Below, in pieces: positions 33,847 through 39,260 of a DNA stretch of 64,000 bases (position 1 is its first letter; every line of letters starts with the position of its first letter). Location: NCBI RefSeq assembly GCF_011045215.1, contig NZ_CP049202.1; one strand, written 5' to 3'. The notes under the pieces were generated by a model. The model was given only the letters and a program-made list of their open reading frames with translations. It was not told where the DNA came from and ran no database searches. A program made the position numbers and the translations under genes. This DNA is from Escherichia coli. Lineage in GTDB: Bacteria; Pseudomonadota; Gammaproteobacteria; Enterobacterales; Enterobacteriaceae.

Positions 33847-34140
33847 TTATTTCATTCGCTCACTGGCAATATTATAAACGTTACACCGCTCTCGTTTCCC
33901 TACAGCAATCACCCATATAACAATTTCTTCATCAATGACCTTATAAATAAGCCTAAACCCAGATGCTCTCAGTTTTATTTTAAAACATCCAGCTAGATCA
34001 CCATGAAGCCTGGCAGCACCAGTGTAAGGATTATGCTGTAGTTTTCTGAGTTTCTTTTTAAACTGGTCACGTATTGTCTTGTCCAGCTTATTCCACTCTT
34101 TAAGGGCCCTTTCGTCAAAGTCGATATTAAAGGTCATCAA
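33847..34140 (-). CDS. relE: RelE-family toxin
   Basis: 97 aa; ...FDERALKEWNKLDKTIRDQFKKKL...CFKIKLRASGFRLIYKVIDEEIVIWVIAVGKRER close to E. coli RelE as recalled. Confidence 0.8.
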   Translation of the reverse strand: MMTFNIDFDERALKEWNKLDKTIRDQFKKKLRKLQHNPYTGAARLHGDLAGCFKIKLRASGFRLIYKVIDEEIVIWVIAVGKRERCNVYNIASERMK

Positions 34141-34381
34141 TATTCACCCTGATGCGTCTGGCAGGATTTTTCAGTCGTTCTCTGACAATATTCAGAATAT
34201 CTTCGTCCTCATCATTATCACTGACAACAACAGACACTTCATTGAAAGGGAGTTTTTCATTTTCAGCGACATAACGGAGAAAAAGGCGGAGAGCTTCTGA
34301 AGGTGAAAGATTGAGCTTTTCGAAGACCTGCCAGGCATTTTTCTTCAGTTCTTCATCGACACGAATTTGAACAGTACTCAT
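34127..34381 (-). CDS. relB: RelB-family antitoxin
   Basis: Start ATG 34381 with GGAG Shine-Dalgarno; MSTVQIRVDEELKKNAWQVFEKLNLSPSEALRLFL...; overlaps relE start. Confidence 0.75.
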   Translation of the reverse strand: MSTVQIRVDEELKKNAWQVFEKLNLSPSEALRLFLRYVAENEKLPFNEVSVVVSDNDEDEDILNIVRERLKNPARRIRVNIDDL

Positions 34382-34459
34382 GATAATACTCCGGTAATAA
34401 AGTATGCAGGCAGTATATACGTGAACAGATGTAATGACAAATGTATTGACATGTGACCT

Positions 34460-34582
34460 ATGCCGCGTCAGCGGCATGGAAGGCGGCACTCCGTTGTTTC
34501 ATGTGATACTGGTGTAAAACCGCCGAAGCCCGGCGTAAGCCGGTACTGATTGACAGATTTCACCTTACCCATCCCCAGCCCT
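34460..34582. repeat. conserved ~115-bp structured element, copy B (copy A at 2801-2913)
   Basis: See copy A; lies 79 bp upstream of the relB start. Confidence 0.6.
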
Positions 34583-34779: not shown

Positions 34780-35258
34780 ACTCTGTTCCGGCCCTTTGGG
34801 CCGGGGCGGGGCCGCTTTTCAGTTATGAGGGATGGGCACGGTGTTTCAGAACTGTGTCTGTCGGGGCCCGCCGCTTGCGGTGGGAGGTGCTTTTAAATTC
34901 TGAGCGGCGCGGCTTTGGCCGCTGCAAGCGAAGGCCTTTTTGTATTTGTTCATAGACGTTTCAGAGATAAAGACTTTCCCTGCGGTGGAACAACGCAGGG
35001 GATTAAATGAAGGGGGTAAGACTATATTGCAGGTTTGCTGTTTCAGGTTTGCAGCTTCTTAAAGTTCTTTGTTTGCGGATTTATGTGGATAACTGAAACG
35101 ACGTGGCCACGTTCTGACGACCGGTGAGAGATTTTATGGCCGTGTATGGACGGATGTGGGGATTTCAGGTGGTTACGGGGGATTTCTGGCCGGACAGAAC
35201 CTGCGCCAAAAGCCCCGAAGGGGCTGGCGATGATTCAGTGCTGAAGGAATGGTGTTGT
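34780..35258 (-). other. oriR: IncFII-type vegetative origin region (oriR-like), immediately downstream of repA
   Basis: Position downstream of repA as in R100/R1; GC-rich dyads and DnaA box present. Confidence 0.45.
35084..35092 (-). promoter_or_regulatory. DnaA box (TTATCCACA on minus strand)
   Basis: Exact consensus 9-mer, 167 bp downstream of the repA stop. Confidence 0.5.
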
Positions 35259-36281
35259 CTAGTGCGGTGGCGGGGCAGCCAGCGTCAGTTCAAGCTGACG
35301 CAACTCCCTGATGGCCAGTCGCTTCAGATGGTCATCGGAACAAAAATAGGCTTCATCCGGCGGCAGACGCTTCCTGAGATACTCTGCCATCTCATGAATC
35401 TGCTGGTCGGCAGGCAGTTTCTTCAGGCGATTAGCACGCTTACAGGCTGCAGCTTTCGCCCGACGGTGTTTCAGCGCATCCTGGCTGCGCTGCAGATACC
35501 AGCGTTTTCTGGCCGCATGTACGGAGATATCTTCATCCTCACGCAGTACACCTTCCCGGATGAGCTGCTGGCGGATTTCACTTTCACGCAGCCGCTTCTG
35601 CTGCTGTTCGTGAAGTTTAACCATATCGACGCCCAGCATCTGCCACCCTGCCGGTGTTATCCAGACATAGCGCGGCAGACGCTGGCGGGTTTCACGGTCC
35701 CACATCGTTTCTTCCGACACACCCAGCACACCAAAACGTACCTGTTCGGTCAGCAGACGGGAAAGCCGGGAGACCGTCACTTCCAGTTCCGGAATAACCT
35801 TCCCCTTGCTGTCTTTCGGGCTGATTTCTCTGGCCAGACGGGAAACACTCATGCCTACGGTATGTGTGCCCGCATCACTGAAGCTGACCAGAACCGGCCA
35901 GATGGCATCGAGGAGGCGTTGTTTTTCCGGACGGAAAGCATATTTGCGACCGGCGAACGTCCGTTTCTGCACGTAAAAAGGATGCAGAGACATGTGCATG
36001 CGCAGGCTCTGTTCGCCAGTCACCGGGTCCTTTTTCACCAGGCGGTGATAAGCGTGCCCAAGCTGCCCGCTCAGCGCCTTATAGCGCGCAGGACGATACC
36101 AGGTCGGATTTTCGCATTTGGGTTTAGTGGAGTGCTCACCACGACGACGCTTTGTGCGCTTCCTTTCCGGTTCAACCAGGAAAGTGGTCGCCCTTCCCGC
36201 TTCATAATCTTCCCAGAAACGGATTTGCTCTTCGGGAGGCAACTGAGCCCAGTGGCCTGGACGGGTATTTTTAATCACCAT
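35259..36281 (-). CDS. repA: replication initiator RepA (IncFII RepA superfamily), about 340 aa
   Basis: ATG 36281; internal blocks align with R100 RepA1 ([13 protein letters not shown] / [25 protein letters not shown] / ITRATRALTFLSE); basic C-terminus; oriR and DnaA box downstream. Confidence 0.7.
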
Positions 36282-36804
36282 ACCCACTCCGTAAGACAGC
36301 CAGACGTGCTTCAGTCAGCGCCAACGGAAATATCCCTAAAAACTCAAAAAAACGAGGCGTCAGCGTTATTGTGCAGCGCTTATTGTAAAAATCTGATGAC
36401 GGGGAACAGACTATAAACCCAAAATCTTCTTCCAGTGATTTAATTGCTCTGACAGCTCGCTCAATGGCTAAATGACCATGAGCATTTTTTCTGGCTAATC
36501 CGCAATCAAGTGCAAGTTCGGTTATAGAACGATGCACTTGATTTGAAACAGGATCGTAGTAGAAGCACATGCCTTGCAACAGTGCATCAATAGCTCTGCG
36601 ACGAAGAACGGAAGGCTTGCGTTTACGTTTACCATTAGCGCGCGCGCACGCAGAAGCTATATCGAATGCAAATGTTTCGGTAAACCCCACCGCTTTGCCC
36701 ATTAGCTTCTCACAGAACGGCAGCGTCCTGGCACCTTCACGGGGTGTGAATACCGGATTAGGGTTCTTTACCTGACGGTAATACGTTTGTTGAAGATCAG
36801 TCAC
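36271..36804 (-). CDS. RepA1 N-terminal-domain homologue (about 177 aa), truncated; status (pseudogene versus coupled leader ORF) unresolved
   Basis: [42 protein letters not shown]...[20 protein letters not shown]... closely matches the R100 RepA1 N-terminus as recalled; stop TAA overlaps the repA ATG (ATGGTGATTAA). Confidence 0.5.
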
Positions 36805-36853
36805 ACCATCCTGCACTTACAATGCACAGAAGGAGTGAGCACAGAAAGAAGTC

Positions 36854-36882
36854 TTGAACTTTTCCGGGCATATAACTATACT
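36854..36882 (+). promoter_or_regulatory. sigma70 promoter for copA antisense RNA (-35 TTGAAC, 17-bp spacer, -10 TATACT)
   Basis: Near-consensus hexamers at 36854-36859 and 36877-36882, facing opposite to repA. Confidence 0.5.
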
Positions 36883-36888
36883 CCCCGC

Positions 36889-36981
36889 ATAGCTGAATTG
36901 TTGGCTATACGGTTTTTAGATGGCCCCGGTAATCTTTCTAGCTCGCCAAAGTTAAAGAAGATTATCGGGGTTTTCACTTTT
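36889..36981 (+). ncRNA. copA: CopA-like antisense RNA (replication copy-number control)
   Basis: About 92 nt between the promoter and a U-tract; 13-bp stem CCCCGGUAAUCUU/AAGAUUAUCGGGG with a loop containing CGCCAAA; position between repA2 and repA1 as in IncFII. Confidence 0.55.
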
Positions 36982-37104: not shown

Positions 37105-37362
37105 TCACGAAATCGCTCTGCGTTTCAGCTCTGATTCAATCAGTTTTTCAAGCATCTGCGCCTGGGTAATACCTTCCTCATCCGCCAGTTCACTCAGCCT
37201 GTCTTTTAACCGGGCCTGGATAACCGCATGAAAAGCCTTATGAGTGTTGCTTCTGCGAGCCAGAGAAGCTCTTTGTCTCTCTCTGGCCGGAACAGGGTTA
37301 CCTTTCCGGTATGCACGCTTAGTGCCTGATGAGGAAGTCACTGCATTTTCTGTCTGCGGCAT
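37105..37362 (-). CDS. repA2: RepA2/CopB transcriptional repressor of repA
   Basis: 85 aa; [11 protein letters not shown]...[19 protein letters not shown] parallels R100 RepA2; position upstream of copA and repA1. Confidence 0.8.
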
Positions 37363-37432
37363 CTCGCCTCCTCAATACTCAAACAGGGATCGTTTCGCAG
37401 AGGATACTACAGTTTTTTTTAATCAGCGACTT

Positions 37433-37563
37433 GAAAGTTGTGACGATGACATGTGTTGGCGCACAAATCATGTCTGATTACGACCGTTTAATGTGATTTT
37501 GATAATGAAATGACTGAAAAGCAGGAAATGCCTTAACCTGTGTGCCCCCGGGCGGGGCTGGCG
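37433..37563. repeat. about 130-bp direct repeat, copy 1 (repA2 upstream region)
   Basis: About 90 percent identical to 38553-38676; the two copies bracket the GNAT/RHH toxin-antitoxin module. Confidence 0.7.
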
Positions 37564-37669: not shown

Positions 37670-38152
37670 TCAGACTTTATAAAATAAGGTGTCAGGTGCC
37701 ACAACTGACTGGACAAAACCAAAACGCTCATAAAACGCTCTGGCGTCATCATCAATTGCATGCACCATAACCGCCTTAACGCCAACCTGTTCAGCCACAT
37801 TTACAACCCGGTGAATAGCATCACTCAGCAGCCATTTACCGAAACCATGCCCCTGGGTACAAACATCAACAGCCAGACGCCCTAACAGAACAACAGGAAC
37901 AGGATTAGGCATGTTATGCCGCAAACTGCGCCCAAGCTCGGCATGTGTGACGGAACCCGTAGCTAATGAGTAGAACCCCACAACACGTAAAGTCCCCTCC
38001 AGGCAAATAACGAACGTGCGGGAAGCATTGAGCATCTGGTTTTTCATAGCCCGACCACGTAACCAGTTACTTAGCACCTCATTTCCACAGTCAAATGGCT
38101 GAAGTATATGCTCATCCGTCAGCAATGCCGGCGCGGTGACATTTATTTCCAT
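37670..38152 (-). CDS. GNAT-family acetyltransferase toxin (TacT/KacT/AtaT-like)
   Basis: 160 aa GNAT fold motifs (...LGRLAVDVCTQGHGFGKWLL...); overlaps the upstream RHH antitoxin gene by 10 bp. Confidence 0.75.
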   Translation of the reverse strand: MEINVTAPALLTDEHILQPFDCGNEVLSNWLRGRAMKNQMLNASRTFVICLEGTLRVVGFYSLATGSVTHAELGRSLRHNMPNPVPVVLLGRLAVDVCTQGHGFGKWLLSDAIHRVVNVAEQVGVKAVMVHAIDDDARAFYERFGFVQSVVAPDTLFYKV

Positions 38153-38433
38153 TCAGGCTTTACCGCCATCAGACGTTCACGCCCTTCTGCATTCTGCACA
38201 GGAGCTTCCAGTTGCGTAATAAACGAATCATAACGTTCGTTATCCAGCACAAATAAGCGTTGATCCAGGATAATGTTTTTAGCTTCCTGGTAAGCCAGTT
38301 CAATGATGAAATCAGTACGGTTCTTATTGACCAGGCTCGCAGCATAATCAATAACGGCTCGTTCCTCATCAGTTGCCCGGATGTTAATCTGGTTTTCTCG
38401 CGGTGTTTTACGGACGCTTGCAGCTGTAGACAT
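38143..38433 (-). CDS. DUF1778-type RHH antitoxin (TacA/KacA-like)
   Basis: ATG 38433 with GAGG Shine-Dalgarno; about 96 aa; ...INIRATDEERAVIDYAASL... Confidence 0.7.
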   Translation of the reverse strand: MSTAASVRKTPRENQINIRATDEERAVIDYAASLVNKNRTDFIIELAYQEAKNIILDQRLFVLDNERYDSFITQLEAPVQNAEGRERLMAVKPEWK

Positions 38434-38552
38434 AAAAACCTCAATTGGTAACAATTTGCTATACAATTAATGTTATCGCAAATGGTAACAAAACGCTATA
38501 CAAAATCACTTACGGGAAAAGTGATCACTGATAAAAACAATGACAGAGGCCT

Positions 38553-38676
38553 GAAAATTGTGACGATGATATATGCTGGCGCACAAATCATGTCTGATTA
38601 CGACCGTTTAATGTGATTTCGATAATGAAATAACTGAAAAGCAGGAAATGCCTTAACCTGTGTGCCGGCCCCGGGC
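38553..38676. repeat. about 130-bp direct repeat, copy 2 (upstream of the toxin-antitoxin module)
   Basis: See 37433-37563. Confidence 0.7.
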
Positions 38677-38765: not shown

Positions 38766-38915
38766 TTACTTCCGTGCTTCGTAGGCCAGAGTTATCTGCA
38801 CCACTGTATTTCTCCTGTGAATATTCAGCTCACACAACCGTTCCCTGAATATCAGTGAAAAACACAACAACGTGGCGCACACAGCGAGCAACCCTATAAG
38901 GGCATATTTCGTCAT
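38766..38915 (-). CDS. srnB: Hok/Gef/SrnB-family type I toxin (49 aa)
   Basis: MTKYALIGLLAVCATLLCFSLIFRERLCELNIHRRNTVVQITLAYEARK: one transmembrane helix plus conserved LCEL; GAGAGG Shine-Dalgarno; in-frame upstream extension from 38972 resembles a mok/srnB-prime reading frame. Confidence 0.75.
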   Translation of the reverse strand: MTKYALIGLLAVCATLLCFSLIFRERLCELNIHRRNTVVQITLAYEARK

Positions 38916-39260
38916 AAACTTTGACCTCTCTGCAAGGAAGAGGCTACAATCAGTAGTGTTAAGGTACTTCATGCAGACCTCACGAGTTAATGGATTAACG
39001 AGTGGGGTCTTCGCATTTCTGGTACCTGCGTCTTGCCTGAACCAGAAAGGCTCAGACACCCGCAGCGATAATACCACATTCCCGTTTGCCGGCCATGTAC
39101 CTGCATTTTCCGGTTATTATTATAAAAACGCCGGGGACGGGGAAAATTTGCTTTTTCCCGTTTCCGGGGTTGGACAACTGAGCAACGCGAAGGCGTCAGT
39201 TATTTCTGTTTATTACATTCTTCTGTATATTTTCTTTTTACAATTCGACACTGCCTTATC

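Follow-up and report, generated by a model that had tools for sequence, protein, structure and literature searches.

The replicon analyzed here, located on the minus strand of a 64,000-nt stretch of Escherichia coli contig NZ_CP049202.1 (hereafter, the window), is best read as an IncFII-superfamily replicon with two initiator-family genes in series, in which the short first gene would relay CopA/tap control to the second and would also encode a DNA-binding modulator; we give this reading a probability of roughly 60%. The gene pair is old and widespread, and both of its members are under purifying selection. Many of the resistance and virulence genes of the Enterobacteriaceae reside on IncF-like replicons, whose copy-number control is usually taught as settled, with CopB, CopA, tap, and one RepA as its parts. 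The presence of a second initiator-family gene inside this control chain, in about 500 plasmids including the EAEC 55989 plasmid and many from Klebsiella, and the fact that this gene is under selection, suggest an unexamined layer of control or incompatibility.

The order of elements on the minus strand was copB, CopA/CopT, tap, the short ORF, the long RepA, a DnaA box, and four AANCNGCAA repeats. The copB (repA2) gene at 37105..37362 (minus strand) encodes a replication regulatory protein of 85 amino acids, which scored 132 bits with NCBIfam PRK13702 (cut-off 87); in E. coli C5 plasmid A, the identical stretch is annotated as "replication regulatory protein RepA". The CopA RNA, which is antisense to the CopT leader of the rep transcript, was found on the plus strand at 36889..36979, where it spanned the full Rfam model RF00042 (1–92) with 97.5 bits against a gathering threshold of 60, and the sole sigma-70-like site in the region was located just upstream of it (36854–36882, plus strand). 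The 24-amino-acid leader peptide tap (36797..36871, minus strand) was recognized from its translation and is annotated as tap in C5 plasmid A; its 3′ end, stop codon included, shares 8 nt with the beginning of the short ORF, which starts at a GTG, within GTGACTGA. The short gene itself (36271..36804, minus strand) encodes 177 amino acids and is a winged-helix paralogue of the FII-type RepA1 without the C-terminal region. Position 36816, given as its start in a mechanical ORF listing, is an upstream in-frame GTG; related records annotate the tap-coupled GTG at 36804 as the start. By direct reading of the sequence, the stop codon of the short ORF overlaps the start codon of the long ORF, which lies in the +1 frame, within ATGGTGATTAA (36271..36281, minus strand). 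The long ORF (35259..36281, minus strand) encodes a RepA of 340 amino acids, assigned to the RepZ/RepFIC-type initiators by the NF040977 profile and by its identity to RepZ. It is followed on the same strand by a CIS-like spacer between initiator gene and origin (35093..35258), the DnaA box TTATCCACA (35084..35092), which lies at the same offset in nine related loci, and the four AANCNGCAA repeats (35027..35081, with starts at 35081, 35057, 35043, and 35035), presumed to be the initiator-binding sites of the origin; the spacer and the box were likewise read directly from the sequence.

The copB gene, the CopA RNA, and the overlap of the tap stop with the next rep ORF are features of the R1/R100-type replicons of the IncFII superfamily, and all of them are present here. 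The single full-length RepA coupled to tap that characterizes R1/R100 was not found in the window, in which the full-length initiator is the second ORF. An I-complex pseudoknot at the start of the long gene was considered and rejected, because the window scored below the gathering thresholds for both PK-repZ (26 bits against 44) and PK-repBA (25.7 bits against 45). The GC content was 42–50% in the short ORF versus 54–60% in the long ORF. Judged by sequence comparison, the replicon is a hybrid in both composition and ancestry, with an FII-like control region and short ORF and a RepZ/FIC-like initiator and origin, which agrees with the first-pass annotation of this DNA, where a recombinant FIC/FII-type replicon had been suggested.

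The long ORF matched the NCBIfam profile NF040977 (RepA_IncFII_LM) end to end (1–266 of 266), with 316.5 bits against a cut-off of 70, and its protein was 91–95% identical at the amino acid level to proteins annotated as RepZ on IncI-typed plasmids. In the window, the DnaA box lies 167 nt past the stop codon of the long ORF, and a stop-to-box distance of 161–167 nt is kept in IncI loci, in loci in which tap is coupled directly to the long gene (single type), and in loci carrying both genes (dual type). The AANCNGCAA repeats are the sole cluster of this motif in the 64-kb window, where its background density is 0.25 per kb, and the IncI locus L017, like the single- and dual-type loci, showed the same layout of repeats. 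An I-complex origin is expected to have its DnaA box and AANCNGCAA repeats at a set distance downstream of the initiator gene, and this arrangement was found here; we take AANCNGCAA to be the IncB RepA binding motif and the repeats in the window to be IncB RepA sites. No dual-specific sequence feature was seen in the origin when dual- and single-type loci were compared. Because of the identity to RepZ and the spacer, DnaA box, and repeats shared with the IncI and single FIC-like loci, the long gene is the initiator that matches the downstream origin, and the predicted protein is a complete RepZ/FIC-type initiator. These results uphold the earlier view that this second ORF of about 340 amino acids is the real initiator, a RepA-family protein with an N-domain of its own, and that it is followed by an origin. 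Within the spacer, a GC-rich hairpin (AGCCCC-TTC-GGGGCT, 35225–35211) is followed by three T residues, the last base of its stem also being T; the terminator scan gave no score to this hairpin. A plus-strand ORF of 430 codons (35124–36416) runs opposite the long repA and partway into the short ORF; it is most likely a shadow ORF.

The short ORF matched positions 1–161 of 275 in TIGR03474 (incFII_RepA) and positions 6–171 of 275 in Pfam IncFII_repA, with a TIGR03474 score of 183.7 bits, below the equivalog cut-off of 446.9. Because it covers these profiles only partially, it is homologous to the N-terminal two-thirds of an IncFII RepA, in line with the earlier description of an ORF at 36271–36804, downstream of repA2 and copA, that resembles this part of RepA1. 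Its closest full-length relatives were the canonical FII RepA1 proteins (285 amino acids), with 52–60% identity over the N-domain. Conserved core residues of the family, among them the CGL motif, are kept in the short protein, and the C-terminal region is missing; structure prediction gave a confident model of a compact, stand-alone winged-helix domain, with a predicted recognition helix at residues 115–127. No sequence relatives of either the short or the long protein were found in the PDB, and fold searches yielded only generic winged-helix matches. The short and long proteins were 24% identical over 117 residues, each with its own copy of the N-domain, and are, by this comparison, distant paralogues.

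This relationship bears directly on the possibility that a sequencing or assembly indel, or a true frameshift, has split a single repA, which the first-pass annotation had entertained in the phrase "frameshifted initiator". An observation of the kind that an indel would predict does exist: P0011, a 300-amino-acid protein from a Logan contig, reads through from the short into the long gene and is the expected product of the loss of one G from the G7 run that precedes the stop codon in L004-type junctions (L004, 2900–2940). This read-through could be a sequencing error or slippage at the homopolymer. The junction in the window contains no homopolymer run, the two ORFs are paralogues and not two halves of one gene, and instead of the one continuous RepA in related plasmids that was named beforehand as decisive against a two-gene arrangement, two intact, separate ORFs were seen across hundreds of independent complete plasmids. 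A pseudogene or frameshifted repA, whose frames would together give one protein aligning along a single homologue, was thus not what was observed, and a split gene is vanishingly improbable.

Within ATGGTGATTAA, the TAA that ends the short ORF and the ATG that begins the long one overlap, as had been noted at the outset, and an overlap of 1 to 11 nt between the two genes was present in every locus examined, taking the forms GTGAGTAA, ATGAGTAA, ATGA, TAATG, and ATGGCTAA in other lineages. A GGAG Shine–Dalgarno sequence precedes the start of the long gene by 5 nt in the window, and a G-rich Shine–Dalgarno sequence was found before this start in the loci checked. In the minimum free energy fold, the Shine–Dalgarno sequence and AUG of the long gene fall within local hairpins, which were not significant relative to shuffled sequences (z = −0.49). 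An internal promoter for the long gene was also considered and discarded, there being no minus-strand sigma-70-like site within the short ORF. The conserved stop/start overlap fits coupling to an upstream ORF under CopA/tap control, and its conservation in every lineage examined is consistent with the earlier proposal that the initiator may be translated in this way; the case for translational coupling is purely one of geometry, and the long gene has a Shine–Dalgarno sequence of its own. In the proposed mechanism, the binding of CopA to CopT would block the translation of tap, and hence that of the short ORF. Ribosomes that reach the end of this ORF would open the structure around the Shine–Dalgarno sequence and AUG of the long gene and then reinitiate, such that the initiator would come under copy-number control by way of the short ORF. 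The short protein would probably outnumber the initiator and may act as a DNA-binding modulator of initiation or incompatibility, although the direction of any such effect is a guess.

The order of tap, a short gene (174–188 amino acids), and a long gene (327–341 amino acids) recurs, annotated or called, in many plasmids, including E. coli C5 plasmid A, 55989p, pE21845IncF, plasmids of E. albertii, two Salmonella plasmids, and Klebsiella plasmids such as pKp11-42, and also in Salmonella and Enterobacter-type contigs, and the pair of short and long genes is present in metagenome contigs too. A tblastn search with the Salmonella short protein matched 504 PLSDB plasmids, 443 of them from Klebsiella, and in 501 of the 504, at least 80% of the query was covered at one place. 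The layout is thus shared by about 500 plasmids and is not the unusual one-off for which it was initially taken. More distant short forms were recovered by a profile search of 1.8 billion representative proteins, and the two that were traced were each followed by a RepA of 338–339 amino acids. Both of these loci lie behind an IncB-type PK-repBA rather than CopA/tap, with a match of 94 bits in one locus and, in the other, a match that is cut by the contig end and reaches 37.9 bits, below the gathering threshold of 45. Among 5,426 complete E. coli genomes, the long repA was present in 1,162 and the short ORF in 21. As the short gene is missing from most E. coli replicons that have this initiator, with tap coupled directly to the long gene in the single-type loci, it is accessory and is not required by this type of initiator and origin. 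The Klebsiella dual type was considered as a possible equivalent of IncFII(K), and this was rejected, since pKPN4, a reference IncFIIK plasmid (PMC4541600), has a canonical repA of 285 amino acids straight after tap. A full-text literature search, whose reach did not extend to older subscription papers on RepFIC and IncB, found no description of the two-gene layout, which apparently is unstudied, even though the ORFs are already visible in databases, where pipelines mark both as RepA.

The dN/dS of the short ORF was 0.16–0.26, a range like that of the initiator, and the long ORF gave 0.06–0.18 across all measurable pairs of loci. In the unsaturated pairs, the short and long values were 0.17 and 0.13 between the window and L005, 0.19 and 0.18 between the window and L004, and 0.23 and 0.15 between L006 and L007. 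The short ORF is therefore under purifying selection, with values that would not be expected of a pure spacer or a decaying remnant. The length of the short family, its C-terminal end, and its core residues are also kept across about 40% identity. The label of a RepA1 "remnant", used in the first-pass annotation, does not suit a gene with these properties and a confident stand-alone fold, which moreover is paired with a long RepA across lineages whose short proteins are only 36–67% identical.

The same data weigh on the idea of a purely translational relay, in which the short ORF is an old recombination leftover that is kept open for the passage of ribosomes to the initiator start and encodes an inert protein. 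Single-type replicons, which outnumber the dual type about 50-fold in E. coli, function with the same initiator and origin and no short gene; the short proteins have diverged more between lineages (36–67% identity) than have their long partners (57–92%); and a degenerate version fused to the initiator exists (see below), all of which a mere relay would accommodate. Such a relay would constrain the open frame and not the amino acids, yet the dN/dS values are in the range of an essential initiator, the conservation extends to the length, C-terminal end, and core residues of the family, and the model is that of a confident compact domain. An inert product is therefore distinctly unlikely. Within the reading that we prefer, in which the short gene both relays control and encodes a modulator, the short protein is more likely to act as a brake or decoy than as an obligatory co-initiator, because the same initiator and origin work without it. 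A more specific form of decoy, directed against competitors, can be envisaged in which the short protein, with the DNA-binding specificity of FII-type RepA1 preserved, binds the oriR of co-resident FII plasmids, cannot initiate there, and so blocks them, providing an incompatibility independent of CopA. The close relationship of its N-domain to canonical FII RepA1, the retention of the family core residues, including CGL, in the absence of the C-terminal region, and its dispensability for its own type of replicon would suit this role. On the other hand, IncB-like control contexts and metagenomes, in which no FII competitors are evident, also contain the pair, and the dN/dS values indicate purifying selection and not the diversifying selection that an arms race might give, so we regard an anti-competitor function as highly unlikely.

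The window proved to be a mosaic. From position 37500 to about 36210, it was 100% identical to the dual-type C5 plasmid A, and from 36160 to 35261, its identity to the single-type C5 plasmid B was 94–100% in bins of 100 nt, reaching 100% in four of the nine, which places a recombination breakpoint at ~36160–36210, inside the long repA. Strain C5 carries both replicon forms, dual and single. Because the window is a mosaic of this kind, long alleles are exchangeable between the dual and single layouts. In a neighbor-joining tree rooted on the N-domains of the long proteins (40 bootstraps), all short proteins, including those from pseudoknot-controlled loci, formed one clade (24 of 40 replicates, 60%) that adjoined the canonical R100-like clade, the short and canonical proteins together being recovered in 34 of 40 replicates; the monophyly of the short proteins is favored by this tree. 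In some loci, the short and long genes are discordantly paired; L006, for example, combines an E. coli-like long gene with a Klebsiella-like short gene, which suggests recombination between modules. The simplest reading of this history would be that an FII-like RepA was truncated once, long ago, and placed in front of a RepZ-like initiator, and that the two genes then descended together, with exchange and with loss on repeated occasions. Two arguments concerning the origin of the single type were examined and set aside. Its derivation from the dual type by a deletion between two ATGGTG motifs would fuse tap in frame to the long gene, and the single-type loci differ from this. The similar first codons of the single-type long genes and the short genes were also rejected as evidence of a deletion, because the overlap with the tap stop limits what the first three codons (VTD, VTE, VAD, or VAE) can be, which makes them uninformative in this respect.

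At one locus, L015 (2501–3922), the two genes are represented by fused proteins of 469–473 amino acids (P0189 and P0190), in which a degenerate short-like N-segment is joined in frame to a long RepA. Neither copB nor tap is present at this locus, and the element in front of it is a PK-repBA pseudoknot (97 bits). Compared with the short family (HHalign probability 93%), the fused segment has lost the basic motif, has YDF in place of CGL, and lacks the wing and recognition part of the domain, which indicates that the short-like domain can decay. By Rosetta-stone logic, such in-frame fusions could also point to a two-component initiator, in which both proteins cooperate at the origin, for example in a heteromer or as neighboring DNA-binding modules, and the short protein is required in the dual type. 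This would agree with a pair that is always adjacent, old, and found behind two control systems (CopA/tap and PK-repBA), and a parallel exists in Buchnera pLeu, which likewise has two repA genes of the IncFII family (PMC3229713). However, the layout of the origin is identical in the dual and single types, the fused segment is devoid of the parts of the domain named above, and long alleles move between contexts, the body of the long gene in the window being 94–100% identical per 100-nt bin to a single-type allele. A required partnership is therefore unlikely. We consider it possible, at well below even odds, that the short protein is a functional part of a two-gene module ancestral to the RepZ/FIC branch, serving as an anti-initiator or as a co-factor at a fixed ratio to the initiator and so setting copy number or incompatibility. 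If this were true, the textbook single-gene IncI and FIC replicons would be derived forms that have lost the short gene.

The two-gene layout also affects annotation and typing. Pipelines label both genes "plasmid replication initiator RepA", and typing by rep-gene similarity can yield mixed calls (IncFIC, IncFII, and IncI-gamma/K1) for one replicon. Indeed, MOB-suite assigned one replicon to both IncFIC or IncFII and IncI-gamma/K1 in L001, L002, L003, and L006, the likely cause being an FII-like control region combined with a RepZ-like initiator. In the PLSDB records H190–H196, of which NZ_CP079783.1 is an example, the final base of the record is also the end of the short ORF, which suggests that these records are numbered from the long repA; only tap is listed under the match, the short gene having been split or missed in annotation.

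Several features were noted in the surroundings of the replicon. A direct repeat of 123 nt (93% identical; 37424–37546 and 38544–38666) flanks a cassette encoding a GNAT toxin and a DUF1778 antitoxin (37670–38466, minus strand), just upstream of copB. In pSA53IncF and C5 plasmid B, there is no cassette at this spot and hok adjoins copB, and the cassette therefore looks to have been inserted or duplicated between the repeats. Addiction-type modules flank the replicon at 33847–34489 and 38766–39077 (minus strand), and were recognized from their translations and the annotation of related loci as a RelE/ParE-like toxin with a ribbon-helix-helix antitoxin and a Hok-like peptide. The region from 3058 to 32635 is an IS-rich accessory region with transposase genes of the IS66 (two), IS110 (two), IS21 (one), and ISKra4 (one) families. 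It also contains a fimbrial usher of the PefC/AfrB type (19231–21657, minus strand), a gene for an iron-type alcohol/L-threonine dehydrogenase (14373–15551), and two ORFs of 281 amino acids, of which the only one scanned (27396–28241) matched regulators of the AraC/RobA family.

Compared with R1/R100 (IncFII, RepFIIA), in which the order is copB, copA/CopT, tap, repA1, and oriR, the window shares copB, CopA, tap, the tap-stop overlap, and a downstream DnaA box, and the short ORF sits exactly at the position of repA1. Unlike in R1/R100, the tap-coupled ORF stops after the N-terminal winged-helix two-thirds, a second gene from another subfamily supplies the working initiator, and the repeats in the origin differ from the R1 type. 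With the I-complex replicons (IncI1, IncB/O, IncK, and IncZ), which consist of a repY/repB leader, a pseudoknot, RepZ/RepA, CIS, and ori, the window has in common the long protein, the distance from stop codon to DnaA box, and the AANCNGCAA repeats, and the PK-repBA pseudoknot of this complex also precedes the more distant pairs of short and long genes. In contrast, the control of the window is of the FII type and not by a pseudoknot, and the IncI locus examined has no short gene. The single replicons of the RepFIC type in F-like plasmids (e.g., pSA53IncF and E. coli C5 plasmid B) have the same copB–CopA–tap control and a long initiator gene with 89–100% nucleotide identity to that of the window, but in these, tap is coupled straight to the long gene (GTGGCTGA), the first nine codons differ, and there is no short gene.

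Shortened forms of an initiator that modulate replication are familiar from the pi isoforms of R6K and from TrfA-33/44 of RK2, which arise from one gene through internal starts. As in those systems, a shorter initiator-related protein would be present in the window alongside the full initiator, although here it is encoded by a separate, distantly related paralogous gene. Two paralogues of the initiator family within one IncFII-related replicon are also found in the pLeu plasmid of Buchnera aphidicola, whose two IncFII repA genes (repA1 and repA2) were called unusual and of unknown role (PMC3229713). The pLeu genes are located at separate places on the plasmid, each with its own putative promoter (PMC3229713), and so do not form a leader-coupled, overlapping pair like that in the window.
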